A stretch of 64,000 bases of DNA from Gammaproteobacteria bacterium (GTDB lineage: Bacteria; Pseudomonadota; Gammaproteobacteria; Burkholderiales; SG8-41), in the NCBI GenBank assembly GCA_041483135.1, contig JBGPFE010000009.1, positions 54,629-118,628 on the forward strand, given 5' to 3'. The position numbers and the translations under genes were made by a program. Of the stretch, positions 17,419 to 63,695 are shown piece after piece (positions within the stretch are counted from its first letter, which is position 1; each line of letters begins with the position of its first letter). The notes beneath the pieces are model-generated. The model was not told the DNA's origin, ran no database searches, and worked only from the letters and a program-made list of their open reading frames with translations.

Positions 17419-17456
17419 CCCTTCACTCTTCACTCATTCACCCTTCACGTCACCTC
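17419..17456. repeat. Single array of TTCAC-containing 7/8-nt repeats
   Basis: TTCAC at 17422, 17429, 17437 and 17444, plus GTCAC at 17449. Lies between the giant gene stop and the next start. Confidence 0.7.
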
Positions 17457-20400: not shown

Positions 20401-23400
20401 GATCGTACCGACATCCGTGCTGCCGGGCGTGCCGCCGAACGTCCGAGAATTACCGTCGAAGGTCAACCAACCGGGAAGCGCGCTACCGTCGGTCAGGCTG
20501 GCGGCATAGGCGTAGTCATGGCTGGAATCGAGGACATCAAAAAATGCGGTTGTCGAAAACTGTAGATTGAATGCGCTGCCTTGTGCGACGGTTTGATTAC
20601 CGATAGGGTCGGGTAGTGTGTGCAAGACGCCGGATGCGGCGCCGTTTGCCAATTGCTCGAGAGTTGTCGAATCCCAATACGAATGATCGGCAAATTGAAC
20701 ACGCTCTACGGCATAGCCAGAAAGCGGAAACCAGCGAATTGCCAGTTGGTCCTGAGTACCGTTGATTCCTATGTATATGTTGTCGTCGTCCCGCGTGATA
20801 GCCAGATCGGTTGAGGAGATGCCATCGCCCAACGCAATCTTGTCGAAATTCCCAAGATTCAGATCAAAATCGATAATAGAATCCTGGCCTGACCCGCGAC
20901 CGAATACATACGTGTCATTGCCCGCGTTCCCGCTTAACTTGTCGTTGCCGGCTCCACCATCCAGCACATCGTTCCCGTCCCATCCAAACAAGCTATCGTC
21001 GCCGCCGGATCCATTGACAATATCGTTACTGAATGTTCCGTAAAAGACATCAGAGCCGCTTGTAGGCAGAAACGCCTTGGCGTACAGATTATTGACTTGC
21101 CAGACTGTCCCGTCGCTGAATCGGACCTGCTCGACGTTATCTCCCTCGAAATCATTCAATGAAACTGAGAACCAGTGATCCAATATGACCTGATCGCTCG
21201 TGCCGCTGAGTGTAAGGAACAGCCGTCCCGCATTTGTCGAGGGCGGGTCGGCGGAAACAATGATATCTGCCGGTGCGATAGTAGCGCCGAACTCAATCGT
21301 GTCGACGCCTCCTGAACTATCACCCCTGTCGGAAGTAAAGCTGCGCGCGGTAAGGCCTGAAGGCGGTGCTTCGACGACCAGATCGTTCCCGAATCCGCGA
21401 TCGAAGCGGTAGACATCGTCGCCGAGGCCGCCATAGAGATCGTCGTTGCCGGGACCGCCTATCAAAATATCGTTGCCATCTCCCCCGTACAGGAAGTCAA
21501 CTCCATTCCCACCGGCAACGATATCGTTGCCCGCATCGGCAGCAATGCGATCGTTGCCGTCGTCCCCGGATAAATTGTCGTCACCATCACGGCCAGAAAT
21601 GTAGTCGTTTCCTGCGAGTCCCGCGATGACATCAGAGCTCGTAGTTCCGGAGAGAAAATCATTGCTAGCGCTGCCGATAGTATTCATGCGATTGGCCAGA
21701 TCGCTGAAGGACCAGCTAGTCCCGTCGCTGAATTGGACTGACGCTGGAATTGCAATGCTCGAAAGTCCACCCAGCGATGCGAGCCCGTTCTTGATCGTGA
21801 TCCGATCGGCGCCGGCCCCCACGATAATATTCAGATCGCCACTAGCGAAGCTATTGAATGTCGAAGTGATCGTTGCGGTCAGTTGGACATCTGCCGGAAG
21901 GATTCCGGTACCGAAAAAGATGCTGTTAGAACTGGCGGCGGTGCCGGTGCCACTACTATCCTGGTAGGTGTCCTGGCCGAAGCCGGGATTAAATATGTAG
22001 CGGTCATCACCGTCTCCGCCACGTAGCGTGTCATTGCCTGAGTTGCCCGTAATTGTGTCGTTGCCCGAGGCACCGGTTATTGTGTCATTGCCTGCCAGCC
22101 CGTCAATGACGGCATCCTTAAATGACGACGTAGTGGAAGCATTTATCGTGTCATTCCCGTTCGTTCCCGTGATGTAGTTTCTGTAATAGTCGGCAAGGTC
22201 CCACACTGTTCCATCGGAGAATTCAGCTCGCTCAACCCGATTTGCGCCAGGACTCGCAACCAGGGAAAGACGGTCGCTGCTACCGGCAAGATTGAAAAAA
22301 ACATGCGAGGCATCACCACTAACCGATATATCTTGCGGCCGAACACCCGCTGCGAAACGGATGGTATCTGTGTCGGTGAAGAATACCCCTTGACTGTACA
22401 GTTCATCTATTGTGTCGCGCCCCGAACCGTACCCAAATAAATAAATGTCATCGCCCTGCTCTCCCCAGAGCGTATCATCACCGGCTCCGCCATCGATTAT
22501 GTCGTTCCCGTCGCCGGCAAAACACTGATCGTTGCCGGCCTCGCCAAACAGAACATCATCCCCGGCCTCGCCCGTAAGCATATCGTTGCCGCTGCCACCG
22601 CTCAGTGTGTCATCACCATCCCCGCCATATAACCGGTCAATACCCGAGCCCGCCGCAAGTACATCGTTACCGTCGTTTCCCTGAATCGTGTAATCGCCGC
22701 CATCGACAGTGATCGAGTCGTCCGTTGATAGCCCATATAGATAGGTCCGGCCACTGATAATCAAAGGTCCGCTTGCTTGACGAATGTAATCCAGATCCCA
22801 TACCGTTCCATCGCTGAAATCCAAGGTGAAGCCGTCATCGCCGCGAAAGAGCGCGTCATACAGCATGATCTGATCTGTTGTGCCTTGGTGGTACAACGTG
22901 ATGACTTGATTGACGTCCGGGGCCCCGACAATAATATCGGCGGGCGCAATCCCGGCACCAAACACCAGCTTGTCCTGCCCTAACCCGCCGCCGAAATAAT
23001 CGTCGCTAATAATATCCTGCCCCCAACCCGCCTCGAAGAGCATTGTAGTGACCCCCGCGGCACCGCTGAGGAAGTCATTCCCCGCGCCGCCTTCGAGATA
23101 GTCATCTCCTGCACCGCCGATGAGAGTATCGTCGCCGCCGTCACCGTAGAGCAGATCATTCCCGTCGCCGCCTTTGAGCGTGTCGTTTGCGCTGCCTCCA
23201 AATAGTGTGTCATTCCCAGCTTGCCCGAGCAGCCGATTACTTTTGCTATCGACGGCAAGCACATCATCGGACGGTGTTCCCGAAATCGCTCCTCCGGATT
23301 CCAGCAATGCGTATTCGAGACGTTGTGCCACATCGTCTGGCGTGAGAACTGTGCCGTCGGCAAATACGAACCGCGAGATAGAAACATTCTTTGAAAATGT

Positions 23401-26400
23401 CGGATCGAACCACGACGTGATATTCAGTTCGTCATCAGTGCCGCGTATCCTGATACGTAATGAATAAGGGTCCACATTGGAATCGGACGTAGTCAATTCA
23501 TTACGCGTGAACATCACGTCATCAGGAGACACGCCAGTTTTGAAAATTACGGCGTCTTTCGTATAGTTCACACCGTTCGAAGTGCTGTCGATAACATCAT
23601 GGCCTGAACCCAACCCAAAGAGATACGTATTGGCGCCGGTGAAGCCGACTAACTTGTCGTCGCCTGGTCCGCCATCCAGGATATCGTCGCCACGGTCACC
23701 TTTGAGCGTGTCATTGCCGTTGCCGCCAAGAAGAAAGTCATCACCGATCCCGCCCACGAGTGTGTCGTTACCATCACCACCTTTGACTACATCGTTACCG
23801 CCGTTGCCGAAAATACTGTCATCCCCTCCCCCGCCATCCAGTCGGTCATCGCCCGCCTGCCCTATCATGAAGTCGGTGCCGCTGGTCGCGTTTTGCGCGG
23901 CAAACCACTTTTGCGTCAGGACTTGCTCGTTCCAGACCGTCCCGTCGGCGAAACGGACTTCCCTGATTGAATAGATCGGTGTGGCTACACGGGGCGGCGT
24001 TTCGATTTCGCCATACCAACTGAGAATCTTCAGCTGATCTGCGCCGCCGTTGAGTGAAAGAATCAGATTGTCCCGACCAGTAGCTGAATACGAGGGATCG
24101 ACGTCAGTAATAACAGTGACATCCGACGGTTGAACGCCCGGCAGCATCTGCACCACATTTCGTATAGTCCCGTAACCCGCGTTGCCGGATCCAGTGCTGA
24201 AATAGTCAAAAACCTGAACGGTGTCATGACCATAACCGTTGCCGAAAACTATCGTGTCGTTACCTCGGGAGCCGGAACTCACACCATCAAAAATGGTGTC
24301 GTCTCCGGGGCCACCGTCATGGGTATCTGCCCCCGGCGAACCGTTCAACTGGTCGTTGCCGTCACCGCCGCGAAGTGTACCCGTGCCGAAAAGTCGGTCG
24401 TCGCCATCGCCGCCCAGCAAAACGTTGATGCCTTGCAAATCGCTCAGGAGATCGTTTCCAGGCCCGCCATCCAGCGTGTCATTGCCGGTACTGTCGGAAA
24501 GGGTATCGTCGCCGCCCATGCCGGACAGAACGTTGTCGCTTGCATTGCCGCTGATAGTGTTATTTACCGCGTTGCCGGTGCCGACGCGCGCCGTGCCTGT
24601 AAGCGTCAATTTCTCAATTTCTCCCGACAATACATAATCACTGCTCGCTTGCACCTCATCGGTGCCCTCGCCTGGCAGTTCGGTCGCTACGTCGCTAGGA
24701 TTGTCGACTTTATAGATATCATTGCCGGGTCCGCCCACCATGGTGTCGATACCCGTTCCCCCGTCGAGAGTATCGTTCCCGCCTTGTCCTTCGAGTATGT
24801 CGTCGCCGGCCCCACCGGTAAGCGTATTCGGGTTCGCATTCCCGATGATGTGATTATTGTCAGCGCCGCCGCTCCCTGCCGTTGCCGACCCCGTAAGAAT
24901 CAAATCTTCGACGTTGGCCGACAACGCGAAGCTAACGCCGGCTTGTACGGTGTCATGACCTTCGTTCGCATTTTCGATTACGGTGTCGAAACCATTGTCG
25001 ACGATGTAATAATCATCGCCTCGACCTCCGCGCATCTGATCGAATCCGGTCCCGCCATCGAGCCGATCGTTGCCGTCCAGACCGTTCAGGATATCGTTCC
25101 CACCGAGACCCTCGATTTGATCGTCAGCTGGCGAACCCGTTAGCGTGTCATTGCCCGCCGTACCCTGGACGACTGTCAGCGCCTGGGCCAATAACGCGCT
25201 TCCGCTTAGCGTTGTCCCATCGGCAAACTCGTAGCTCTCGATTTGGATGCCGTCGGAAATATACAAACTATCACTGGTGCCGTAAGAAACCCTAAGCCAG
25301 GTTGCCCCTAATCCTTTTGTGGCGACAAGAGAGTTTGCAGTAATTCCCGGGCCAAAAACAACGCGGTCATTGCCGCCTGCGTCATCGGTGAGTTGGTCAT
25401 TGCCATCCCCGCTATTGAACAAGTAGGTATCGTCGCCGCTCTCCCCAATCAAAACATCATTGCCCGTACCGCCGATGAGCGTGTCATCGCCGGCTCGCGA
25501 CTGAATGAAGTCATTGCCGCCTTTGGCGTCTATGAAATCGGGATCGTTGACGCCGAACAGCACATCATCGTTACTGGTGCCGACGACGTTAAATCCAAGA
25601 CTCAGCAATTCTTCGTAATCAAGGCGCGTGCCGTCGACGAATTCGAAGAACTCTATCGTGTGTGGTCCGTGGACATCGTTTGGATCGACAGTTTCAAGAT
25701 GAATGGCATCGCCCTGATCGCCGACGTGGATGAGCAGCGACCCCCCTCCCAGCGACAGAGAATCCGGTGTAATGCCCTCTCCGAAAATCAGCGTATTGGG
25801 CGCACCGGAAGTGGACATGTCAGTAATGTGATCGACACCGTCGCCCAGATTGAACAGGTAGGTGTCGTTGCCGTCGCCACCGGTCAGCGTGTCGTTGCCG
25901 CGGCCTCCCGAGAACGTATCGTTGCCGCCGTTGCCGGTGAGCGTGTCGTCGGCCGTGCCGCCCATCAGATTGTCATCGCCAGCGGTGCCGGACAGATTCT
26001 GTGGCGTGATCAGGGTGTGGCCGAGGAACTGCGCCCAGGTCTCGACACTGCCGTCGGCGTATTCGACCGACTCGATGTTGCCCTGCAAGCCATCCTTGAC
26101 CGCGATGGTGTCGGTCGCAGTATATTGAATGCCTAAATACTGCGGATTTTCTTCTGGAACGAACGTGATAATGCTGGATGCCGATATGCCATCGCCGAAT
26201 TTGATGCGATCGACACCCCCCTCGTCTTCCAGCGTGTCGTTGCCATCACTCGCGTTGAAGCTATAGACATCGTCGCCAACTCCGCCCAACAGCGCATCGT
26301 TGCCGGAGTCACCCGCAAGCTGGTCGTTGCCATCTCCACCTTCGAGCTGATCGTCTCCTGTCCCTCCGAATAAAGTATCGTTGCCGCCGAATCCCTGGAG

Positions 26401-29400
26401 TACGTCGTTGCCCGCTTCCCCATCGAGGTAGTCGTCACCCTGGTAGGCAACCGGGATGTTGTCGCCGTCCCCGGCCATCTGGTCATCGCCATCACCACCG
26501 AAGAGGGTGTCGCTGCCGCCCTGACCGAGCAGGATGTCGTTGCCCGTGCCGCCATCGAGATAATCGTCACCGTGAAATTGGGCGTCGAGCAAATTACTGT
26601 CACCAGACAGCTGATCGTTGCCGTCGCCGCCGAAGAGGGTATCGTCGCCGCCGTCGCCGAAGAGCTTGTCGTCCCCCGCTTCGCCGTCGAGATAATCGTC
26701 GCCGTGAAATTGCTGGGCGAGCAGATCGTGGTCCCCGGAAAGCTCGTCGTTGCCGTCGCCACCGAACAATGTGTCCGACCCGCCCTGGCCGAACAGAAGA
26801 TCATCGCCGCCTTCGCCGTTGAGATAGTCCGCGCCGTCCGCCTGTGGATCGGAGTAGACAGCGCTGCTGACATCGTACGTCGCGGTGTCGCCGAGCAAGA
26901 CATCGTTGCCATCGCCGCCGAACAGCGTGTCGGCATCTTCCTGACCGACGAGCCGGTCGACGCCATCGCCGCCCAGCAGCAGATCGTCACCGGCGCCGGC
27001 CCAGATCACATCATCGCCGGCTCCGCCATCCAGCACATCGCTTTCATCCCCCGCCGCGCGCGGATCGCCGCCAAAGCCCGTGAACGAATAGAGCGGCGCA
27101 TCCGGCGTGCCCGATTGGATCACCGTCCAGCCCTGGCCTTCAGCTACGACGTTCCCGGTGTGGATGCCGCCAACGCCAACGGCAGTGTACCCATCCCCCC
27201 CAAACAGAAAATCGTTGCCGTCGCCGCCATTGATTACGTCGGAACCGGCGCCGCCAGCGGCAACATCGTTGCCTTCGTCACCGGTCAGGTAGTCATCATC
27301 TGCGCCACCTTGCAGCGCATCATTGTCGAGACCGCCATAGAGCTCGTCGTTGCCGCCGGAGGCGATCAGGATGTCGTTGCCTTCTTCGCCATATAGGTAT
27401 TGGTCACCATCATCGTTGGTGATGATGTCGTCGCCAAGTCCACCCCAGCCTTCGGCCTGCGCAAGGCTTACGCTGATGCGATCATTGCCACCAAAGCCGA
27501 ATATTTTTTGCAGGAATGAGGTGCTGGTAAGAGTGTCCGCGCCTTCCGTGCCGTCAAGTTCCGTTTTTTGAAGGGGATCGGGAAACAAAAGATGGATGCC
27601 GAGTTCGCCATCATGAAAATTCTGAACTACAACTTTTTCCGGGCTGCCGTCCTTGGTGATCGTCAATATTCCAGGGGAGTTTACTTTGCCCGTAAATTGA
27701 TACTGAAATCCGTTGCTATCCTGAAACTTCTTCGGGTCGTCGCCGGGCACCGCACTCTTGTCTCCGGTCAAGTCCTGGCCCTCAACAACGATCTTGCCCT
27801 GACCATCCCCCGCGCTCTGAGAGTTCAGCAATCCGGCGTAATCGATAATTTCATCGCTGTCCGAGCTGCGCTCGACAATATAAGTATCGAAGCCGCTGCC
27901 GCCCCGTATTACATCCTTACCCGATCCACCAGTGAGCGTGTCGTCACCCGCGCCGCCATCCAGGGTGTCGAAGCCACGCCCACCCACCAGCGTGTCAGAG
28001 CCGGTGCCTCCCGATATCGAGTCATAACCGTCATCGCCCTCGATGTAATCGTCACCGAATCCACCGCTGATCGTGTCTCCACCTCCGCCACCATACATGT
28101 GGTCATTCGCAATTCCACCGTTGATCGTTTCAGCGTTATCGCTACCAAAGATGAAACGATCGACTCCGATATTAGGACCGAAGGTGATTTTTCGTGGTAT
28201 GTCCTCAAAGTGAGCCTGGACTTGCGCTGAAAGCGCTCCGTCTACGCGGTTATAGCGAATATAGTTTGCCAACATCGTGGCTCGATCTTCGAGCCATTTA
28301 TCTGTAAGAGTGCCGCTGTCGTTGTTTACATCGTAAAGATTAAGTTCACCGCTCGCGTTGTGCTGCGTATAGATCGTGTTGTCGCCAACAATGGCAAATG
28401 GGTTAAGTTCCCTGAGCGCATAGCGGTACCCAAGCGCTTCCGAGCCTTGGGCGATATTGGAAAGATCGGTGGCATTGGTGCCAACAAGACTATCCAAGAA
28501 CAACGACGGGTTGGCTTTAACTAGATTTTCTAGCTCAAGCAATTTGTCAAAATATTTCCTGCGACCATTAATGTCGCCAGCACCGATTCCAGACAAACTA
28601 GATGCGTCTACCAACGGTAAGTCGGTTAAGCCTGTTGTCCGGTTTCCGAAGACTTTGTAGAGCGCATCAACCAGCTTTTCCTGGGTATCCTTGGCCTGGC
28701 GCGAGGCCGCCTCGAAAAGCGCGGTCATGTCTGAAAGTCCAAGCGCGTTGTTCATCCGGTACAACAGCGCTTGCAGCGCGAGGCTGTCCATAAACGGTTC
28801 AATCAGGTGGCTGTTGGCCTCGGTTGCAACCGGCTGCCGTGGACTTAAAGCTGTATCGTTGGTAATAACGCTTGATACTATGTTTATATCATCTCCGGGC
28901 GCCTCATCCTCGCTCTCGAAGTTGTGAATCGGAAGTCCATCAAACGTTGACGTTGGCGGCGTACCCAGGAAACGCCCGAAAAGGTCCACCAACTCATCGG
29001 TAAGTTTAAACGGTGCTGTGCCAATGGCAGTCGCAATCCCAGCAACGGGACTGCGGGAAAGAACTCCCACAAGGGTTCCCAGAATGACACTCGAATATTC
29101 TGGGTCAAACCCGGGAGCGTTGTATGTGTAAGCATCCTTCACTAAATCTGGAAACAATCTCGCGGCGAGTGCCGCGAGGTGTCCGCCCAAGCTGTGCCCA
29201 GTGACAACGATTTGTTCTCCAGAACCAATAAGATTCAACCCTTGCCCGGTGAAGTTTGGAGTGAAATACAAATACGCTGCACCGCCTCGCAATGGAATGC
29301 TCGGTAGGATGGAAGGTTGGGTTGTAGATACATTCCATTGAAGCTGAAGAACGTCCGTCTTAGTCTCAGGTGCTCGTAACCGCAAAATGAAATTGACCAT

Positions 29401-29823
29401 CGATACCGCTTGCGATAGCGCAAGACCGATGAAGCCTATCTGAGCGAGATCAGCAGCAAATAGGTCGAGCCCCAGTTGGGTCGTCGGTTCGGTTCCTCGA
29501 AATGCAAGCACTTTTTCACTCGTTCCACCAGATTGACGTTGGAAAAGGATTGCAGCAAAACCAGTTCCGTCATTTCCGTAGTAACCATTACGATTAGGGC
29601 CGAAGTCTGGGATGGCCCAGACGGGCTGGCTGCTGGCTTTGGCTTGGTCGGAGTCCTTGTCGAATGTCTGGTTCGCTAGCGCTGATGGAATGCGTTTCTG
29701 ATCGTCTGCATTTGCAAGCCTAGCAACTGTCGCGCCATCGAGAGGTTGTCCATCCAGAATCACGTAGGCAGCGGTGGCGAGCTTGGAAAACTCGTAGTAA
29801 TCAAGAATATTGGGCATGGCCAT
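17455..29823 (-). CDS. Giant (4122 aa) T1SS-type protein: N-terminal class-3-lipase-like alpha/beta hydrolase, RTX blocks, haemolysin-type Ca-binding-related modules, six cadherin-like repeats
   Basis: GHSLG nucleophile elbow (Ser211, nt 29191-29193) followed by YTYNAPGF. Many GGxGxD runs. About 11 modules of type Y.F..G.G.D.I.D......I.F..GI...D. Repeats NDAP(I/V)L...D.D.GDTL.Y......LP.WL.F....TF.GTP. No signal peptide. The likely true start is the second ATG (29817), 6 nt after AGGAGG. Confidence 0.93.
18790..20615 (-). repeat. Six tandem about 300-bp coding repeats (cadherin-like/dystroglycan-type domains)
   Basis: For example, attgaacgtca(a/g)cca(t/c)gacggcagcgcactgcc recurs at 19219 and 19519 (period 300). 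The protein repeats are about 100 aa each, and the first is divergent. Confidence 0.9.
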
Positions 29824-30582: not shown

Positions 30583-31517
30583 GGGGTCAGGTCTTGAATC
30601 TTGAATCATGCGATCCCTCCCGTTTGATGACCTTGCTCACCGATGAATAATGAAGCCCAAGATAGGCCGCGATCGCCGCTTGCGAGTAGCCATGGCGCAT
30701 TGCGGCTTCGACGATTGCGCGATTTCGCTGAGGACGTCCATTCAATACTTTCACCGTGAGAATCCCTCCCAGGCTGGGCCGGCCAAGAAAGCGCTGTTCG
30801 CGCCGCATCTCTCGCAGGCCGTGGCGGGGACGCTTCAATTTGGCGATGAACGCGGCACTTCCCAGGATGACCTGGGCTTCCAGCCCCTTCCATGGGCTGG
30901 GAGCCTTGATCCCCTCAGCTACGAATGCCCGATAGCGCTTCTGCGCAGCCGACTGATGCCTTCCGAATTGCCCGAGTATCCAATCGCAGGTCAGATAGCC
31001 GGGCGCAGGAGACAGGCCGGCGGTTGCACGATAGCTGCTCCATTGGTAGTCCTGCGCCCTTCCCACCATGCGCGCTCGCACGGGATTGAGTACGACGTAG
31101 CGGCAGAGTTCCAGAAGATAGCTGTCGCGATCCACCACGATCGCCTTGAATCGCCCCTGGAAAACATGCCCGACGCGATGATGCCGGCGATTAAACCTCT
31201 GGGTGTAGATCCCATTGAGCTGGCGCATGCCGGCACTCAAATTCGCCTCGGTGGTCTCGATCATGAGATGGTAGTGGTTGCCCATTAAGCAGTAGGCGTG
31301 AAGCAGCCAGTTAAATCGCGCGATCGTCTGCTCCAGCACGGACAGGAATTCGCCCCGATCGGCATCATCTTCGAAGATCTTCCTACGCGCATTCCCACGT
31401 GCCGTTACGTGATACACGGCTCCCGGAAACTCGATTCGAAGCGGCCTGACCATTCTTAGCGTTCCTTCGAATCAGCTCCCAAACTCACCATTAATTCAAG
31501 ATTCAAGACCTGACCCC
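30583..31517 (-). mobile_element. RAYT unit: Y1 transposase gene bracketed by perfect 24-bp inverted repeats
   Basis: GGGGTCAGGTCTTGAATCTTGAAT at 30583-30606. Its exact reverse complement is at 31494-31517. Confidence 0.8.
30587..31453 (-). CDS. REP-associated tyrosine transposase (IS200/Y1 HUH family) with C-terminal HTH
   Basis: 288 aa. GAVYHVTARGN, HUH motif GNHYHLMIE, Tyr motif RYVVLNPVRARMV. C-terminal GYSQAAIAAYLGLHYSSVSKVI resembles a DnaA-C-like HTH. Confidence 0.85.
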   Translation of the reverse strand: MVRPLRIEFPGAVYHVTARGNARRKIFEDDADRGEFLSVLEQTIARFNWLLHAYCLMGNHYHLMIETTEANLSAGMRQLNGIYTQRFNRRHHRVGHVFQGRFKAIVVDRDSYLLELCRYVVLNPVRARMVGRAQDYQWSSYRATAGLSPAPGYLTCDWILGQFGRHQSAAQKRYRAFVAEGIKAPSPWKGLEAQVILGSAAFIAKLKRPRHGLREMRREQRFLGRPSLGGILTVKVLNGRPQRNRAIVEAAMRHGYSQAAIAAYLGLHYSSVSKVIKREGSHDSRFKT

Positions 31518-37125: not shown

Positions 37126-37410
37126 GTGTCACATTCATACTATATTTACTACCGCGTCGATCCGGTGCAAGCCGAGGCAGCCGGTCCGCGCATCAAACAA
37201 CTGCTGGATGCGGTCAAAGGATCAACCGGGATCGCGGGCCGGATCATGCGAAAGCGCGGTGAACCGAATCTGTGGATGGAGGTCTATGAAAACATCGCCG
37301 ATGAAGCCCGGTTCGAGCGGGAGCTGGCGGAAGCCGTGGGTAAACTCAAAGTCGCCGAATTTTTACAGCCGGGCAGCGCGCGTCAAACCGAATGTTTTGA
37401 AGAGCCGTGA
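37126..37410 (+). CDS. DUF4936-family protein
   Basis: 94 aa, GTG start. YYIYYRV......LWMEVYENI..FERELAEAV.......GSARQTECF fits the DUF4936 pattern. Confidence 0.7.
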   Translation: MSHSYYIYYRVDPVQAEAAGPRIKQLLDAVKGSTGIAGRIMRKRGEPNLWMEVYENIADEARFERELAEAVGKLKVAEFLQPGSARQTECFEEP

Positions 37411-37416
37411 GCACAG

Positions 37417-37490
37417 ATGAAGGATGAGGGATGAAGGCAGCGATGTTGAATGCTGTTCACCATTCACGATTCACCATTAACCATTCACCA
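37417..37490. repeat. Inverted arrays of TGAA/TTCA heptamers
   Basis: Left arm ATGAAGG ATGAGGG ATGAAGG (37417-37437). Right arm TTCACCA TTCACGA TTCACCA TTAACCA TTCACCA (37456-37490). Confidence 0.8.
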
Positions 37491-43376: not shown

Positions 43377-43940
<564 letters not shown>

Positions 43941-44334
43941 CGCAGCGCTATTCCCATTCAATTGTTTCTGAGGTCTGAAGACCCGCATGAATGCTAGCGT
44001 TCTTGAAGTTGAGCATCGACATTTACCATCGCTTTTACCGTAAAAGAACCACAGCTTTTACAGGCGCGGGAGATGGACTCAATTTGCGGGGCGGATACTC
44101 CTCGGCATCAATCGTCAACTAGGATCGTGCGCTGTCGGCATATTCTACCCTTCTGGAGTCCTCCTCCGCGGGGGCTCAATAGGTAGTTCCGCGGCAGTAA
44201 TCGGCTGGACGTTGCGTTCGGCTCGCAAGCGCAAATCCTGAGGCCATGCCGATTTACACATTTCATACCTAGGCGGATCGACCGTGGTTTGAAGAAGGGG
44301 TCGGCCCTGTGCCAAAAACTCGAATTTGGTGCCC

Positions 44335-45342
44335 TCAAATTTGGCCACTATTGTTTTTCCGCGGGCTTCCACGGCGAACGGCAGGCTTTCTTGATTTGCG
44401 CGCGATGGAGGGTTCACTGGGAGCCGCCATCCGCAATGACCACTCATCCCAGTACGCATTCTCGCCGAAGCGTTCAACGAGGAAATCCAGAAACGATCGA
44501 ACTTTCGCCGGCATGAATTTACGACTTGCGTATACCGCGAAGATTCCCAATTCGCCAGCATCGTAATCGGCCAGTACATGAACTAGGCGACCCGCTTTAA
44601 GGTCAGCGCCAACCAGAAAAGTAGGCAAAAGAACAATTCCGTGGCCATCCAACGCCAACTGCTGCAACAGGTCTCCGTTATTGACTTGCACGCAGCCCTC
44701 AACCTGAACGGTCTCCTCTTGACCTCCGTGCTTGAATACCCAGATCTTTGGTCGAGGATTGTAGAAGTAAGTAAGGCAATTTTGCTCGCGAAGTTGTTGT
44801 GGGGTTTTCGGCGCACCGCGCTGCTTCAGATAGGCAGGTGAAGCGCAAACCACCAGGCGGGTGGTAGCGAGCTTGCGCGCAATTAGCGTGCTTTGGTCGA
44901 GCGTGCCGATTCGGATGGCAAGATCAAAGCCCTCCTTGCCGATGTCAATAAAGCGGTCGCTCAGTTCCAGTTCTATGCTGACTTCGGGGTAACGCCCCAA
45001 AAATTCGCTGATTGCGTGCGAAAGGTGGCGCAATCCGAACGACAGTGCCGACGTGATCCGGATCTTTCCGCGAGGCACGACGGTCGACTGACCCGCTTCA
45101 AGCATTGCCTCATCCAATTCGCCGAGAGCCCGCTGGGCGCGCTCGTAAAACGCGCTGCCCAGTTCGGTCAAAGCGACCCGCCGTGTAGTTCGGTCCAAAA
45201 GCCGGGTGCCGATGCGCTCTTCCAAATACTTTATGTGCTTGCTGACAACGGCGCGCGACAGTTCAAGGCGATCAGCGGCCGCAGCAAAGCTGCCGTCGCC
45301 CGCTACGGCGATAAAAACCTTGAAACTCAGCAATGTATCCAT
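44335..45342 (-). CDS. LysR-family transcriptional regulator (unusually long C-terminal tail)
   Basis: N-terminal wHTH FIAVAGDGSFAAAADRLELSRAVVSKHIKYLEERIG. 335 aa. The last about 35 aa are a low-complexity, basic extension. Confidence 0.88.
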   Translation of the reverse strand: MDTLLSFKVFIAVAGDGSFAAAADRLELSRAVVSKHIKYLEERIGTRLLDRTTRRVALTELGSAFYERAQRALGELDEAMLEAGQSTVVPRGKIRITSALSFGLRHLSHAISEFLGRYPEVSIELELSDRFIDIGKEGFDLAIRIGTLDQSTLIARKLATTRLVVCASPAYLKQRGAPKTPQQLREQNCLTYFYNPRPKIWVFKHGGQEETVQVEGCVQVNNGDLLQQLALDGHGIVLLPTFLVGADLKAGRLVHVLADYDAGELGIFAVYASRKFMPAKVRSFLDFLVERFGENAYWDEWSLRMAAPSEPSIARKSRKPAVRRGSPRKNNSGQI

Positions 45343-50982: not shown

Positions 50983-52548
50983 CTACTCCCATTCTATCGT
51001 CGCCGGCGGTTTGCTCGAGATGTCGTAGACGACGCGATTGATGCCGCGCACTTCGTTGATGATGCGATTCGCAACCTTGGACAACAGCGCGTGCGGCAGC
51101 TCCGCCCATTGCGCGGTCATGAAGTCCAGTGTTTGCACCGCGCGCAAGGCGACCACGTTTTCGTAAGTGCGGCCGTCACCCATCACGCCGACCGAGCGCA
51201 CCGGCAGGAAAACCGCGAATGCCTGCGCGGTTTTTTCATACCAGCCCGCCGCGCGCAGTTCGTCGATGAAAATTGCATCCGCACGCCGCAGCAACTCCGC
51301 GTATTCAGCCTTGACTTCGCCGAGGATGCGCACGCCGAGCCCCGGCCCCGGAAACGGATGACGAAATACCATGTCGTGCGGCAAACCAAGCGCCAACCCC
51401 AGTTCGCGCACTTCGTCCTTGAACAATTCGCGCAGCGGCTCGAGCAGCTTGAGGTGCAGGGTCTCCGGCAGCCCGCCGACGTTATGATGGGATTTGATGG
51501 TGTGAGCCTTCCTGGTTTTCGCGCCCGCCGATTCGATCACGTCGGGATAAATCGTGCCCTGCGCCAGCCACTTTACCTGCGGCAGCCTGGCTGCTTCGCG
51601 CTGGAACACCTCGACGAACACGCGGCCGATGATCTTGCGCTTCTCCTCCGGATCCATGATGCCGGCAAGCTCGCCGAGAAAGTGCCGGCGCGCATCGACG
51701 GGTATCACTTTGGCGCCGAGATTCCTGGCCAGGGTCTGCATCACCTGCTCGGCTTCGTTGAGCCGCAGCAGACCGTTGTCGACGAACACGCACGTGAGTT
51801 GCTTGCCGATCGCGCGGTGGATCAGTGCCGCCGCCACCGCCGAATCGACCCCGCCGGACAGCCCGAGCAGAACTTCTTCCTTGCCAACCTCGGAACGGAT
51901 GCGGCCGATTGCCTCGTCGGCATAACCAGGCATGCTCCAGTCGCCAGCAAGGCCGCAGATGTCGCGCACGAAGCGCTCGATGATCGCCTTGCCCTGCAAC
52001 GTATGCGTGACTTCGGGATGAAACTGCACCGCGTAGAAACGGCGTGATTCGTCGGCCATTCCCGCAACCGGTGTCGCCGCGTTGCCCGCGATCACCCTGA
52101 ATCCCGGCGGCAGTTCGGTCACCTTGTCGCCGTGACTCATCCACACGTCGAGCAGGCCGTGGCCTTCCCCGCTGATGCGGTCCTGAATGTCCCGTAACAG
52201 CGCCGAATGGCCGCGTGCGCGCACTTCGGCATAACCAAACTCGCGGACCTTGCCGCTCTCGACCTTGCCGCCCAGCTGCTCGGCCATCGTCTGCATGCCG
52301 TAGCAGATGCCGAGCACCGGCACGCCGAGCTCGAATACGGACTTGGGCGCGCGCGGTGTGCCACCCTCCCACACCGACGCCGGGCCGCCCGACAGGATCA
52401 CGCCCCGCGGCGCGAACTCCCTTATGAAGTCATCGGAAACGTCGTACGGGTGCAGCTCGCAATAAACGCTGGTTTCGCGGACCCGGCGCGCGATCAACTG
52501 GGTGTACTGCGCGCCGAAATCGAGAATGAGGATTTTTTGGTGCTGCAT
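50983..52548 (-). CDS. guaA: GMP synthase (glutamine-hydrolysing)
   Basis: 521 aa. [33 protein letters not shown]-terminal ATIEWE. Confidence 0.98.
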
Positions 52549-52654
52549 AGTGAATGAGTGAATATGTGAATGGGTGAATGCGTATTTAAAACTCGCCTGC
52601 GTTTAGTCGCGCCCGTTTACTCCTTCACTCCTTCACTCCTTCACCTTTTCACTC
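52549..52654. repeat. Inverted arrays of GTGAA/TTCAC with exact 8-nt phasing
   Basis: GTGAA at 52550, 52558, 52566, 52574. TTCAC at 52624, 52632, 52640, 52648. Mirror-symmetric about 52601. Confidence 0.85.
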
Positions 52655-54112
52655 GGTTCTATAATTCGGCGCTTCCTTGGTGATTTGCACGTCGTGCACG
52701 TGCGATTCGCGGACGCCGGCGTGCGTGATTTCGACAAATTCGGCCTTGCTGCGCAGTTCGTCGATCGAGTTGCAGCCGGTGTAACCCATGCTGGCGCGCA
52801 GCCCGCCCATCAGTTGCTGTATCAGCGGCACCACGCCGCCTTTGTACGGCACGCGGCCCTCGACGCCCTCCGGCACCAGTTTCTCGGTCGCTTCCTCGGC
52901 GTCCTGGAAATAGCGGTCGGCCGCGCCCTGCTGCATCGCGCCGAGCGAGCCCATGCCGCGATACAGTTTGTAGGAACGCCCCTGGTAGAGCTCGGTTTCA
53001 CCGGGCGCCTCCTCGGTGCCGGCGAAAAGCCCGCCGATCATGATCGAGTAGCCGCCCGCGGCAATCGCTTTCGCGATATCGCCGGAAAAACGGATGCCGC
53101 CGTCCGCCACCAGCGGCACGTCGGTTTTGGCGAGCGCCTTGGCGACGTTCTGCACCGCGGTGATCTGCGGCACGCCGACACCGGCGATAATGCGCGTGGT
53201 GCAAATCGAACCTGGGCCGATGCCGACCTTCACCGCATCGGCGCCGTGTTCAACGAGCGCTCTGGCGGCGTCGGCGGTCGCGATGTTGCCGCCGATCACC
53301 TGCGTTCTCGGATAATTCTTCTTCATCCACTTGACGCGGTCGAGCACGCCCTGCGCGTGACCGTGAGCGGTGTCGACTACAATCACGTCAACGCCTGCTT
53401 CAATGAGCGCTTCGGCCCGTTCCTCGGTGCCTTCGCCGACACCGATTGCCGCGCCGACGCGCAGCCGCCCGAGCTTGTCCTTGCAGGCGAGCGGATGCTC
53501 GGTCGACTTCTGGATATCCTTGACCGTGATCAGACCGCGCAACTCGAATTTCTTGTTGATCACCAGCACGCGCTCGAGCCGGTACTTGTGCATCAGCGAC
53601 ATCGCCTCTTCGCGGCTCGCGCCTTCGCGCACCGTGACGAGCCTCGAGCGCGGCGTCATGATGTTCTTGACCGGCTGGCCGAGATTGGTTTCGAAACGCA
53701 GATCGCGGTTGGTGACGATGCCGACCACCCGTCCGCCGGCATCGATCACCGGCAGGCCAGAGATCTTGTGCTGGGCCGTGAGGTTCAGCACATCGCGCAC
53801 TTTCATGTTCTGGGTGATCGTGATCGGGTCCTTGACCACCCCGCTCTCGAAGCGCTTGACCTTGGCGACTTCCACGGCTTGCGCGCGTGACGCCATGTTC
53901 TTGTGAATGATGCCGATGCCGCCTTCCTGCGCGATCGCGATCGCGAGGCGGGATTCGGTAACAGTGTCCATGGCGGCGGACACCAGCGGGATATTGAGAC
54001 TGATCGTGCGCGTCAGCCTGGTTTTGAGGCTGACGTCGCGAGGCAGAATTTTGGAATGAGCGGGAACCAGCAGGACATCGTCGAAGGTTAGGGCTTTTTG
54101 CATCACGCGCAT
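52649..54112 (-). CDS. guaB: IMP dehydrogenase
   Basis: 487 aa. [13 protein letters not shown] pair, [11 protein letters not shown] catalytic loop. Confidence 0.98.
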
Positions 54113-56059: not shown

Positions 56060-56136
56060 TGGGGTGGCTGATGGGACTCGAACCCACGACAACCGGAATC
56101 ACAATCCGGGACTCTACCAACTGAGCTACAGCCACC
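56060..56136 (-). tRNA. tRNA-His (GTG)
   Basis: Reverse complement is GGTGGCTGTAGCTCAGTTGGTAGAGTCCCGGATTGTGATTCCGGTTGTCGTGGGTTCGAGTCCCATCAGCCACCCCA. It has the extra 5' G, anticodon loop TTGTGAT and an encoded CCA. Confidence 0.95.
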
Positions 56137-56161
56137 ATCGAAACCATGCGGCGCGCAACCA

Positions 56162-60669: not shown

Positions 60670-61047
60670 TCAGCGGCGTTTTTTCTTGCCGCGGACAGCG
60701 GTACCCACCGCCTCGTCGATCAACTGCGACAGCCGTATGCCGCGCTCGACCGATTCGTCGTAGACGAAATGCAGTTGGGGGACGCCGCGCAACTTGACGC
60801 GCTGACCAAGCTCATGCCGCAAGAAACCGGCGGCATGATTGAGACCTGCAGTTGCCGCTGCAATCTGGTCATCGTCGCCAAGGGTGGTGAAAAAAACTTT
60901 AGCATGCGCATAATCGGCACTGACCTCAACGTCGGTCAATGTCACCATGCCGACGCGCGGATCCTTGACCTCGAGCCGGATCATGTCCGCGAGCTCACGC
61001 TGAATCTGCTCGGCCACGCGCAGCGTGCGTGAATAATCGCGGGGCAT
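60670..61047 (-). CDS. rbfA: Ribosome-binding factor A
   Basis: 125 aa. R..RVAEQIQRELA.....VKDPR.G.VT.TDVEVS.D...AKV. Confidence 0.95.
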   Translation of the reverse strand: MPRDYSRTLRVAEQIQRELADMIRLEVKDPRVGMVTLTDVEVSADYAHAKVFFTTLGDDDQIAAATAGLNHAAGFLRHELGQRVKLRGVPQLHFVYDESVERGIRLSQLIDEAVGTAVRGKKKRR

Positions 61048-61055
61048 CGCAAATC

Positions 61056-61148
61056 CAGTTTCGAGTTTTGCGTTTAGAGTTTTGAGACGTTAGTTCCGGG
61101 CTCTGCTCGTCACCGGATTAACTCGCAACCCGCAACTCCAAACTGCCG
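61056..61148. repeat. Inverted heptamer arrays forming a long imperfect hairpin between infB and rbfA
   Basis: Left arm CAGTTTC GAGTTTT GCGTTTA GAGTTTT GAGACGT. Right arm ACTCGCA ACCCGCA ACTCCAA ACTGCCG. Pairing blocks are 61056-61/61140-45, 61063-67/61134-38 and 61077-81/61120-24. Confidence 0.8.
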
Positions 61149-63695
61149 TTACAAGGTTCTCGCCACTTCGACGACCTCGTAGGCTTCGAGCTGGTCGCCG
61201 ACCTTGATGTCGTCGAAGTTCTTGACCGACAGACCGCACTCGAAGCCGGCCTTGACTTCACGCGCATCGTCCTTGAAGCGCTTGAGCGAATCGAGTTCGC
61301 CGTCGTGAATCACGACGTTGTCGCGCAACACCCGCACTCTGGCGCTGCGGCGCACCAGACCTTCAGTTACGTAGCAGCCTGCGACCGTGCCGACTTTGGA
61401 GATCTTGAACACTTGACGCACCTCGACCATGCCGAGCACGCTTTCCTTCTTCTCGGGTGCCAGCATGCCGGACAGCGCGGCTTTCACTTCATCGACGGCT
61501 TCGTAAATGATGTCGTAGTACCGGATATCGACGCCCGAGGATTCGGCAAGCTTGCGCGCCATCGCGTCGGCGCGCGCGTTGAAACCGATGATCACGGCTT
61601 TGGATGCAAGCGCGAGATTAACGTCGGACTCCGTAATGCCGCCGACGCCGCAGTGCACGATGTTAACCTTGACCTCGTCGGTCGAAAGTTTCGGCAGCGT
61701 ATGCGACAGCGCCTCATAGGAGCCCTGCACGTCAGACTTGATGATGATCGACAGCGTCTTCGCCCCCGCCTCGCCGATCTGCTCGAACATGTTCTCGAGC
61801 TTGCTCGACTGCTGCTGCGCGAGCTTGACGTCGCGGAATTTGCCCTGCCGGAACAGTGCGATTTCGCGTGCCTTGCGTTCGTCGCCAAGCACCAACACTT
61901 CGGAACCGGCGGCCGGCACGTCCGACATGCCCTGGATTTCAACCGGGATCGACGGCCCGGCGCTGTCGACAGCCTTGCCGTTTTCGTCGAGCATCGCGCG
62001 CACCCGTCCGAACACGGCACCCGCCAGCACGACATCACCTCGCTTCAGCGTACCCGACTGCACCAGCACGGTTGCGACCGGACCGCGGCCCTTGTCGAGC
62101 CGCGCTTCGATCACGATACCCTTCGCCGGTACATCCTTGGCGGCTTTCAGTTCCAGCACTTCAGCCTGCAACAGCACGCTTTCCAGCAACTGATCGATGC
62201 CCTGGCCCGTCTTGGCCGACACCGGTACAAACATGGTGTCGCCGCCCCATTCTTCAGGCACGACCTCCTGCCCCGCGAGATCCTGCTTGATTCGATCTGG
62301 ATTCGCTTCCGGCTTGTCGATCTTGTTGAGCGCCACCACCATCGGCACTTTGGCTGCCTTGGCGTGGTGGATCGCCTCGATGGTCTGCGGCATCACGCCG
62401 TCATCCGCCGCCACCACCAGAATCACGAGATCGGTGATTTTCGCACCACGCGCGCGCATTGCCGTGAATGCCTCGTGGCCCGGCGTATCGAGAAACGTAA
62501 TCATGCCGCGCGGCGTTTCGACATGGTAAGCGCCAATGTGCTGCGTGATGCCGCCGGCTTCACCGCTCGCCACGCGCGTGCGGCGTACGTGATCGAGCAG
62601 CGACGTCTTGCCGTGATCGACGTGCCCCATCACGGTGACCACCGGCGCGCGCGGCTCGAGTGTGACCTGCACGGGCGCAGCCGTTTCAGCGAGAAACGCG
62701 TCGGGATCGTCGAGCTTGGCACGCACCGGCTTATGCCCCATTTCCTCGACTACGATCATCGCGGTTTCCTGGTCCAGGACCTGGTTGATCGTGACCATCG
62801 TGCCGAGCTTCATCATCGCCTTGATGACCTCGGCCGCTTTCACCGACATTTTCTGTGCCAGCGTGGCAACCGTGATCGTCTCGGGCACGCTGATATCGCG
62901 CACGATCGGCTCGGTCGGCGCCGCAAACACATGCTCACCGCCCTGAGCCTCCTCGCCTTCGTGCTTCACGTGACGGTCTTTGCGCGTGCGCCATCCCATG
63001 CCGCCGCTCATGTCGCCACGCGTTTTAATAGAGCGACGCTTGACGCTTTCGTCTCTCCAGACGACTTCCCTGACCGGTTTCTTGGCTTTTTTCTCGGTCT
63101 TGGGCTTATCGCCGGGCTTGAGTGCCGGCTTATGCAGCGTGCCTTCCGTAAGCACCGCGGTCGCGGGTTTCGCCTCGGCAACCGGGGCCGTCGAGGCTTC
63201 GGGCGCCGCCTCTACCGCGGCCGACGCCGCCTCCGCGTCGGCTTTCTTGCGCTTCTGACGCGTTTGTTTCTGCTGCGCCTCCTCGCTTTGCCGCGCGATC
63301 AGTTCGGCCTGCTTTTTCGCCTCCGCTTCACGGATCGCGACTTGCTCGGCATCGAGCACCGGCGCCTTAGGCTCGGCCGGTGCGGTTTCAGCCGCATCAC
63401 GTTTGACCAGCACGCGCTTTTTGCGCACTTCGACCTGGATGGTACGCGCCTTGCCGGTGCCGTCGGATTTCTTGATCTCGGTCGTTTGCTTGCGCGTCAG
63501 AGTGATCTTGTTCTTGGCTTCTTTAGCACCGTGCGCATGCCGCAGATAATCGAGCAGCTGCGTCTTGTCCTTTTCGGTCAGGACGGTATCGTCAGCGAGT
63601 TTTTTCTTGACACCGGCAGTCTGCAGCTGTTCCAGCAGCAACTCTACCGGCAATCCGAGATCCTTCGCAAATTGTGTGACGTTGATCTGTGCCAT
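61149..63695 (-). CDS. infB: Translation initiation factor IF-2
   Basis: 848 aa. [13 protein letters not shown]1 motif, [13 protein letters not shown]. Confidence 0.98.

Follow-up and report, generated by a model that had tools for sequence, protein, structure and literature searches.

A self-complementary pair of short tandem arrays fills the guaB-guaA spacer of a betaproteobacterium

The guaB-guaA spacer and its predicted fold

The stretch of DNA analyzed here, in the following called the window, comprises 64,000 nucleotides (nt) of contig JBGPFE010000009.1 from a bacterium of the order Burkholderiales. On its minus strand it contains guaB (52649-54112), which encodes an IMP dehydrogenase of 487 amino acids with the Pfam domains IMPDH and CBS, followed by guaA (50983-52548), whose product is a GMP synthase of 521 amino acids with the Pfam domains GATase and GMP_synt_C. 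The 100-base gap from the guaB stop codon to the guaA start codon is spanned by two tandem arrays with an 8-nt period and reverse-complementary units. This feature is a self-complementary short-unit tandem-array pair ("inverted SSR pair", with SSR standing for simple sequence repeat) that fills the whole stop-to-start spacer, and it belongs to a lineage-wide, fast-evolving class of such pairs that are located in spacers inside transcription units and show a strict polarity, with the G-rich arm coming first.

On the plus strand, the pentamer GTGAA occurs at positions 52550, 52558, 52566, and 52574 (the complete unit being GTGAATNN), and the pentamer TTCAC at 52624, 52632, 52640, and 52648. A first-pass annotation made from the sequence alone had described these four facing pairs as symmetric about position 52601, and this was matched exactly, since 52601 is the center of every facing GTGAA/TTCAC pair. 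The plus strand layout is CAT A GTGAATGA GTGAATAT GTGAATGG GTGAATGC ... CTCCTTCA CTCCTTCA CTCCTTCA CCTTTTCA C, and Tandem Repeats Finder (TRF) delimited two arrays of period 8 at 52549-52580 (4.0 copies) and 52619-52644 (3.2 copies, 100% match). The sequence GTGAANNNGTGAA occurs seven times in the window, compared to an expectation of 0.16 +/- 0.37 derived from 100 dinucleotide shuffles, none of which reached seven; six of these matches lie inside the guaB-guaA spacer and the remaining one is located at 17429. Between the consensus unit and the reverse complement of the partner unit, one of eight positions differs. The facing 3-nt linkers are mostly non-complementary in the symmetric register, as had also been recognized in the first-pass annotation.

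In the mRNA the G-rich 5' arm (52616-52652, minus strand) reads GUGAAAAG GUGAAGGA GUGAAGGA GUGAAGGA GUAAA. Its array of GUGAAGGA units starts on the guaB stop codon UGA (52649-52651; TCA on the plus strand), which lies within the first array unit and accounts for the previously reported overlap of this arm with the end of guaB. The arm is completed by a fifth, degenerate unit, GUAAA (52620-52616). The subsequent apical region of about 32 nt (52584-52615, minus strand) includes a small stem of its own and lacks a terminator-like U tract; it is not kept in relatives. The C-rich, G-poor 3' arm (52549-52583, minus strand; (ACG)CAUUCACC CAUUCACA UAUUCACU CAUUCACU) is composed of AUUCACNN units and ends 1 nt upstream of the guaA start codon AUG (52546-52548; CAT on the plus strand), so that the complete order on the transcript is GAG-UGA(stop) AAAG GUGAAGGA x3 GUAAA, ~32 nt, CAUUCACC CAUUCACA UAUUCACU CAUUCACU, AUG(guaA). 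A run of three G is found in no unit of either arm. Three of the 5'-arm units carry the Shine-Dalgarno (SD)-like sequence AAGGAG, within or beside predicted internal loops, and no SD motif was found at the guaA start between positions -17 and -4.

The minus strand transcript was folded with ViennaRNA into a single imperfect hairpin consisting of four helices of 5-7 bp with internal loops of 1-3 nt. The predicted energy of this hairpin is -34.8 kcal/mol (z = -4.0), and none of 200 shuffled sequences was equally stable. The prediction agrees with the structured RNA with regular internal loops that the first-pass annotation had envisaged, but not with its opinion that a simple stable hairpin was unlikely, as the hairpin is imperfect and yet predicted to be stable. 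The guaB UGA is positioned inside the first predicted helix with a probability of being unpaired of about 0, and the guaA AUG directly 3' of the last base pair (1 nt past it). One-unit register shifts of the helix would incur a predicted penalty of only 3-4 kcal/mol, and blocking of the first 24 nt, which mimics a ribosome on the UGA, led to a predicted re-pairing of the remaining 5' units with the AUG-proximal 3' units (-23.9 kcal/mol).

Orthologous spacers, related arrays, and polarity

A set of 128 guaB-guaA spacers was compiled from 80 GTDB genomes, 80 metagenome contigs (closest match 88% identical), and the window together with two near-identical assemblies. Mirror arrays were detected in 12 distinct spacers, belonging to the window and 11 related Betaproteobacteria; the metagenome contigs contributed five of these (L089, L094, L096, L106, and L158). 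Five unit types can be distinguished: a GUGAA-type unit in the window, L003, L007, L010, and L024; UCAGG / CCUGA in L008, L011, and L094, where the arrays lie on both sides of a terminator-like apex that is conserved; GUGAGG or GUAAGG / CCUCAC in L089 and L096; GAGGAUC / GAUCCUC in L106; and GGCGAU / AUCGCC in L158. All 12 spacers fold as one long hairpin with z-scores from -1.8 to -6.6. Its outer pair is located at or before the stop codon in 10 of the 12 spacers (the exceptions being L024 and L158), and the 3' side of this pair is at most 13 nt away from the AUG, likewise in 10 of 12. When each arm was paired with its own partner, the summed duplex energy was -421 kcal/mol, compared to -281 +/- 28 kcal/mol for permuted partners, and 0 of 20,000 permutations reached a value as low. 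Pairing thus is best with the own partner despite the differing units, and therefore the unit turns over with the complementarity of the arms preserved. A unit-specific linker variant in L010 recurs in mirror image at the symmetric position, which results in a perfect stem of approximately 20 bp. In many other relatives, the guaB-guaA spacer either is very short or carries only a simple GC hairpin with a U tract.

Beside the guaB-guaA pair, the window contains three further mirror pairs and one single array, for which TRF determined a period of 7. The second mirror pair (37416-37490, plus strand; GAUGAAG x3, loop, UUCACCA x5) occupies the whole stretch between the stop codon of a DUF4936 gene (37126-37410, plus strand) and the AUG (37496, plus strand) of a TANGO2/NRDE gene. 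The third (43846-43943, minus strand; GAGAGGC x3-4, loop, CUCGCCU-type x3) is situated in the leader of tadA (AUG at 43834), and its fold has a predicted energy of -57.1 kcal/mol. The fourth (61053-61146, minus strand) consists of GAGUUGC-type units, a loop, and (U/G)C(A)AAAC-type units, and occupies the spacer from the infB stop codon (61149) to the rbfA AUG (61047). The single G-rich array (17419-17456, minus strand; GUGAAGG GUGAAUGA GUGAAGA GUGAAGG) starts at the stop codon of a gene for an RTX-type protein of 4122 amino acids (17455-29823, minus strand), and the gene downstream of it has an SD of its own. The four window pairs comprise three unrelated unit types within 64 kb, and GUGAA-type arrays are present at three loci of the window, as opposed to only two in 1.6 Mb of other genomes. 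In array-free relatives, the DUF4936 and TANGO2 genes abut or overlap, and the infB-rbfA spacer has a length of 10-50 nt. L007, the nearest of the sampled relatives with long flanks (85% GuaA identity), harbors three mirror pairs in 14 kb, which are located in the guaB-guaA spacer, the infB-rbfA spacer, and the spacer between tRNA-Arg(TCT) and tRNA-His(GTG). Its infB-rbfA pair has the unit GAGGAUU / AAUCCUC, unlike the orthologous spacer of the window. The arrays at 37416-37490 and 17419-17456, which had already been regarded as related to the guaB-guaA arrays, are real. Arrays recur both in orthologous spacers and elsewhere in the genome, so that the absence which the first-pass annotation had named as refuting its interpretation does not hold.

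All 18 pairs contain more G than C in the arm that is 5' on the transcript, and more C than G in the 3' arm. The mean difference between G and C over 36 nt was +8.7 in the 5' arms and -11.9 in the 3' arms of the guaB-guaA array set (-12 for the 3' arm in the window), compared to -1.4 and -4.5 in array-free spacers (p = 3e-7 and 7e-6, respectively). The plus strand TANGO2 pair and the minus strand pairs of the window share this G-first rule, and therefore polarity tracks transcription rather than the DNA strand. In the 20 nt immediately upstream of the guaA AUG, there are 2.25 G in the presence and 4.1 G in the absence of arrays (p = 5e-5). Stop triplets are enriched in the 5' arms (2.25 vs. 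0.85, p = 0.008). Moreover, in GUGAA-type 3' arms other than that of the guaB-guaA pair in the window, variation is lower in the UUCAC core than in the linkers (4/85 vs. 8/34, p = 0.0045), which points to a constraint on the core, from either pairing or binding.

Population stability was assessed by comparison with 2-9 other assemblies per locus, a shallow sample of strains that are about 99.9% identical, and no copy-number or length polymorphism was observed among them. Two other assemblies have an identical guaB-guaA spacer, seven assemblies each match the TANGO2 and the tadA arrays exactly, and nine others have an infB-rbfA spacer of the same length. The infB-rbfA spacer of the window (61047-61152) differs from all nine by four transitions, at -44, -31, -16, and -8 from the rbfA AUG. 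They are confined to the loop and the 3' arm, and about 1.8 kb of flanking sequence is otherwise the same, except for one additional difference in contig L169. The background divergence is about 4 per 7.5 kb, and these substitutions look like local hypermutation or conversion in the array. The possibility of a phase-variation (contingency) locus was rejected, as no length variants were found on the shallow timescale sampled.

Some spacers of relatives carry repeats of other kinds. In the metagenome contig L132 (297-397), the guaB stop codon is followed by a mirror pair (GUUAGNN / NNCUAAC, each arm containing 6-7 stop triplets), behind which lies a gene starting with MAGYRDLKVWQ... in place of guaA. 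In the Thiobacillus-like spacers L008 (4697-4797), L011 (2778-2903), and L094/L097, the UCAGG/CCUGA arrays surround a conserved GC hairpin with a U tract (AAGUCACGCG...CGCGUGGCUUUUUCUUU), and compensatory changes in this apex hairpin were observed in L094. It looks like an intercistronic terminator or attenuator that is embedded at the apex of the array hairpin. The Methylophilaceae L080, L126, L138, and L139 share a different conserved guaB-guaA hairpin of CCACAGAG / CUCUGUGG-like repeats that ends with AAAAA-AUG, and may represent another lineage-specific repeat hairpin at this junction. In L114, L122, and L124, the guaB stop codon is followed by 3-4 direct copies of a repeat of about 13 nt (CUACGACCCGAUU-like) that has no inverted partner, and then by a terminator-like hairpin and an SD (GAAGG).

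Additional features were noted close to the other arrays of the window. Upstream of the tadA array, a stretch of about 390 nt (43945-44334) contains no convincing open reading frame (ORF) and no Rfam match; it is bounded by the stop codon of a LysR-type gene (44335-45342, minus strand). An Arg-rich ORF of 54 amino acids (43824-43988, minus strand) that crosses the tadA arrays and ends just inside tadA is probably spurious. The 4122-amino acid RTX-type protein (17455-29823, minus strand) is encoded with many 27-nt repeats (nonapeptide GGxGxD) and with 303-nt repeats at 19078-19770, and a second RTX-like ORF of 888 amino acids is located at 3092-5758 (minus strand). Two mini-arrays with reverse-complementary units about 900 nt apart, TCTTGAA x2.3 (30592-30607) and ATTCAAG x2.1 (31494-31508), flank both ends of an ORF at 30587-31453 (minus strand); this arrangement may be due to chance.

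Comparison with known repeat systems

The closest described counterparts are the heptamer SSRs GGGAATC of Xanthomonas campestris and X. axonopodis, and GGGGA(C/T)T of Nostoc (Rehm et al., 2015; PMC4692102). Each Xanthomonas genome contains 70-75 pairs of convergent arrays, each pair within one intergenic region and mostly between co-oriented ORFs, and the arrays, which typically consist of about four copies of the 7-nt unit, are transcribed and have no assigned function (PMC4692102). The G-rich array lies on the coding strand at most 50 bp after the stop codon, sometimes across it, and the C-rich array at most 50 bp before the start codon; between species the position is kept, whereas length and sequence vary (PMC4692102). 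That heptamer SSRs are over-represented in genomes that are large and GC-rich is mentioned there, together with the idea of polymerase slippage, with reference to an earlier study (ref. 33 of PMC4692102). The guaB-guaA arrays resemble the Xanthomonas pairs in that 3-4 head-to-tail copies of convergent, reverse-complementary units share one spacer, that the neighboring ORFs are co-oriented, and that on the coding strand the stop codon is followed by the G-rich array and the start codon preceded by the C-rich one. They differ in the unit length of 8 nt (7 nt at the other loci of the window), in the lack of a G3 tract and thus of G-quadruplex potential, in units that vary by locus and species in place of a single genome-wide consensus, and in the betaproteobacterial host.

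Direct repeats of the heptamer TAACTGA occur in marine Beggiatoaceae and in some Cyanobacteria and Bacteroidetes (MacGregor, 2015; PMC4679880). These arrays end a few nt from start codons, in the place of the ribosome-binding site, in a setting where SD motifs are rare and housekeeping genes are among the downstream genes; translational roles have been proposed for them, with S1, Csp, or CsrA as binders (PMC4679880). Like the TAACTGA repeats, the guaB-guaA 3' arm ends 1 nt before an AUG that lacks an SD. However, the TAACTGA repeats have one fixed genome-wide unit (the guaB-guaA unit being CAUUCACN), are almost never found as inverted pairs (one indirect set among 170), and are not G/C-skewed, in contrast to the paired and skewed guaB-guaA arrays.

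The REP/BIME elements (repetitive extragenic palindromes and the mosaic elements formed by them) of enterobacteria and pseudomonads are imperfect palindromes in transcribed operon spacers that form RNA hairpins and stabilize upstream mRNA. Close to a stop codon, a REP can interfere with termination; these elements have a conserved consensus of 20-40 nt, exist in hundreds of copies, and are linked to RAYT transposases. As a class, they are also named in PMC4692102. The guaB-guaA arrays likewise constitute an imperfect palindrome in a transcribed operon spacer with a predicted RNA hairpin, but the four window pairs have no common consensus and their arms are internally tandem-repetitive. Translational coupling by long-range mRNA pairing, as in the coat-replicase junction of MS2 or of the rpmI-rplT type, relies on pairing of the downstream start region with a stretch that a ribosome translating or terminating upstream has to unwind. 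Compared to these systems, the pairing partner at the guaB-guaA junction would sit in the spacer right after the stop codon and both partners would be tandem repeats, and the mirror-pair architecture also exists where no ribosome passes, namely in the tRNA spacer of L007. Rho subunits contact 5 nt separated by linkers, and Rho utilization (rut) sites are unstructured over 60-90 nt, contain more C than G, and have contacts spaced by 4-5 nt (PMC12360218). The guaB-guaA 3' arm contains more C than G as well; it has a length of only about 35 nt, its units follow each other every 8 nt, and pairing is predicted for it. In a 2022 preprint on Nostoc, deletions of heptamer repeats did not settle the role of these repeats. 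Intrastrand-triplex repeats (PMC4666352) and a 2025 survey of short tandem repeats (PMC12699852) were considered but turned out not to be relevant to the arrays. No paper was found in the literature that describes inverted pairs for Betaproteobacteria or deals with co-varying arms. The guaB-guaA pair is new relative to the described kind with regard to its 8-nt unit, the locus-specific units, the absence of G-quadruplex potential, and its betaproteobacterial host.

Origin and possible role of the array pairs

On balance, we lean toward the interpretation that the guaB-guaA pair is a product of slippage and template switching that persists as an intercistronic hairpin. A unit of 7-8 nt could have been seeded at the stop codon (GAG-UGA-A giving rise to GUGAA) and expanded by replication slippage; tandem duplication of a stop-containing segment would explain both the overlap of the first unit with the stop codon and the enrichment of stop triplets in the 5' arms. 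The opposite arm would stay complementary mainly through DNA-level copying across the hairpin, i.e., by intrastrand template switching or quasi-palindrome correction, and selection would then retain only those versions that fold and have the G-rich arm first in the transcript. According to this model, the arms of the guaB-guaA mRNA would zip to an imperfect hairpin of about -35 kcal/mol that loops out the 100-nt spacer, places the guaB stop and the guaA start codon next to each other, and holds the C-rich, G-poor arm in a paired state. The SD-less guaA start would then probably be accessible chiefly to ribosomes that have terminated at guaB and unwind the lower part of the hairpin (translational coupling), and naked spacer RNA would not be exposed.

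Several observations weigh against this interpretation. The opposite-strand (antisense) RNA folds as well as or better than the sense RNA, both for this spacer and for its orthologs, so that the folding of both strands suggested in the first-pass annotation yielded a significant sense hairpin together with an equally good antisense one. Two of the four window pairs fold no better than shuffled sequences (TANGO2, z = +0.4; rbfA, z = -1.1), and the tadA pair is preceded by no ORF. In L007, a mirror pair (5249-5322; GUUGAGU / ACACUCA) is located between tRNA-Arg(TCT) (5158-5234) and tRNA-His(GTG) (5339-5413), and therefore the class is not tied to translation; the orthologous tRNA spacer of the window (56136-56161) contains no array. 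Translational coupling as a general role is ruled out by this tRNA-Arg/tRNA-His pair and by the pair in the tadA leader. At a GuaA identity of 87-88%, arrays are present in L003 and absent from L083. Furthermore, guaA lacks an SD motif in about 90% of the betaproteobacterial spacers, whether arrays are present or not, and guaA initiation seems to be generally SD-poor in Betaproteobacteria. SD sequestration or an RNA thermometer was dropped as an explanation for the same reason. The sequences AGGA, GGAG, or GAGG occur 4-17 nt before the guaA start in only about 8-10% of the spacers (L003-L162), and many spacers have a terminator-like hairpin instead. Finally, the transition mismatches between the arms comprise 22 sense-strand G·U and 36 A·C, i.e., there is no G·U excess and therefore no signature of RNA-level compensatory selection. 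The mismatch pattern and the antisense folds fit DNA-level copying of the arms better than compensatory evolution at the RNA level.

A serious rival, although we consider it rather unlikely, is that the pairs are pure mutational filler, namely neutral or slightly deleterious arrays generated by slippage and template switching, with complementarity and polarity as by-products. Such an origin would agree with the fast turnover and the differing presence among close relatives, with the units that differ even inside one genome, with the unrelated contexts of the pairs including the tRNA-tRNA spacer, with the two window pairs that are no more stable than shuffles, with the missing excess of sense-strand G·U, and with the four substitutions by which the infB-rbfA spacer departs from nine assemblies with identical flanks. 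It is made less likely by the G-first polarity of all 18 pairs, which tracks transcription and is not predicted by a replication-only process, by the extension of the arrays exactly from stop to start codon, and by the lower variation of the pentamer core compared to the linkers; in addition, the guaB-guaA arrays persist across several lineages with different units, and copy number is stable in the sampled population. A read-through trap made of tandem stops in all three frames was also evaluated and discarded, as the enrichment of stop triplets is modest (p = 0.008) and is not seen in the UCAGG and GAGGAUC lineages, and seeding at the stop codon fits better. Coding potential of the arrays was rejected in view of their 8- or 7-nt period and of stops that are frequent in every frame.

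One form of the phased binding-site array considered in the first-pass annotation would be that UUCAC repeated every 7-8 nt, or GGA/GGAG repeated every 8 nt, is bound as single-stranded RNA by a multimeric binder such as Rho, S1, Csp, or CsrA, with the other arm masking these sites. The conserved UUCAC core with variable linkers in independent arrays is consistent with this assumption, as are the accumulation of GUGAA-type arrays at three window loci compared to two in 1.6 Mb elsewhere, the rut-like excess of C over G in the G-poor 3' arm together with the 5-nt contacts and linkers of Rho (PMC12360218), and the binders proposed for the TAACTGA arrays (PMC4679880). However, the units are wholly different between orthologous spacers (UCAGG/CCUGA, GUGAGG/CCUCAC, GAGGAUC/GAUCCUC, and GGCGAU/AUCGCC) and between loci of one genome, including the three other window loci; this variation makes a phased protein-site array less likely, and a fixed array of sequence-specific protein sites is unlikely. 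The period of 7-8 nt also deviates from the 9-10 nt of Rho, GGA is missing in many 5' arms (among them those of L007 and L003), and both arms are predicted to be paired. It is the complementarity of the arms and not a motif that has been kept. The reduced variability of the UUCAC core leaves some room for a binding role of this core; altogether we regard binding of this kind as improbable. An RNA switch that regulates guaA (for instance a thermometer, an attenuator or terminator, or a purine-sensing element) would be compatible with the hairpin adjoining the start codon, whose many internal loops would melt stepwise, and with the terminator-like GC hairpin and U tract in the spacers of many relatives, such a hairpin also being flanked by the Thiobacillus-type arrays. 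The hallmarks of a riboswitch, thermometer, or terminator are not present, though, which renders these less likely: a search of the whole window against Rfam 15 at gathering score retrieved tRNAs only, the best match by E-value in 52450-52750 was a snoRNA (E = 0.06, 21 bits compared to a gathering score of 50), and a scan of 52200-53000 identified 0 terminator-like sites and no promoter pattern, with the 3' arm running into the AUG. Since there also is no SD to sequester and no evident alternative pairing partner, and the mirror-pair architecture exists before unrelated genes and between tRNAs, a switch appears highly improbable. Least credible of all is a DNA-level element, i.e., a cruciform, a slipped structure, or iterons for a DNA-binding protein that act on replication or transcription. 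The single-stranded DNA folds are significant (-20.7 kcal/mol and z = -4.5 for the spacer; z = -3.6 for a second fold) and arm complementarity is symmetric on both strands, but the polarity follows the direction of transcription, which makes such an element less likely, the 7-8-bp phasing is off the helical repeat, the units vary between loci, and arms with such interruptions are ill-suited to forming a cruciform (-17 to -21 kcal/mol as DNA).

A more far-reaching idea is that of a "sliding zipper", which would be a general operon-spacer device of this lineage and of Xanthomonas that shields the spacer from Rho and hands ribosomes from stop to start across 100 nt. The G-rich array, being transcribed first, would at once zip up the C-rich, rut-like array, and the tandem arms would allow the helix to slide in register. 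With a ribosome on the upstream stop codon, the remaining units would re-pair as in the predicted -23.9 kcal/mol fold, and the base of the hairpin and the SD-less start would stay beside the terminating ribosome. This idea is decidedly doubtful.

In several bacterial genomes that are large and GC-rich, repeats of the heptamer class are over-represented between genes, and inverted pairs next to stop and start codons have been described since 2015 without an accepted function. The analyzed arrays add that the unit sequence is free to change as long as the arms remain complementary, that the G-rich arm is in every case the first to be transcribed, and that the pairs replace abutting, probably translationally coupled junctions of relatives and are also found between tRNAs. 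These properties argue against a sequence-specific binding protein, and in combination they point to a structure or polarity constraint that acts on a mutational product. As part of a housekeeping operon, the guaB-guaA spacer offers a simple experimental setting, and if the pair should have no function, it would be a clean natural case of hairpin evolution by slippage and template switching.

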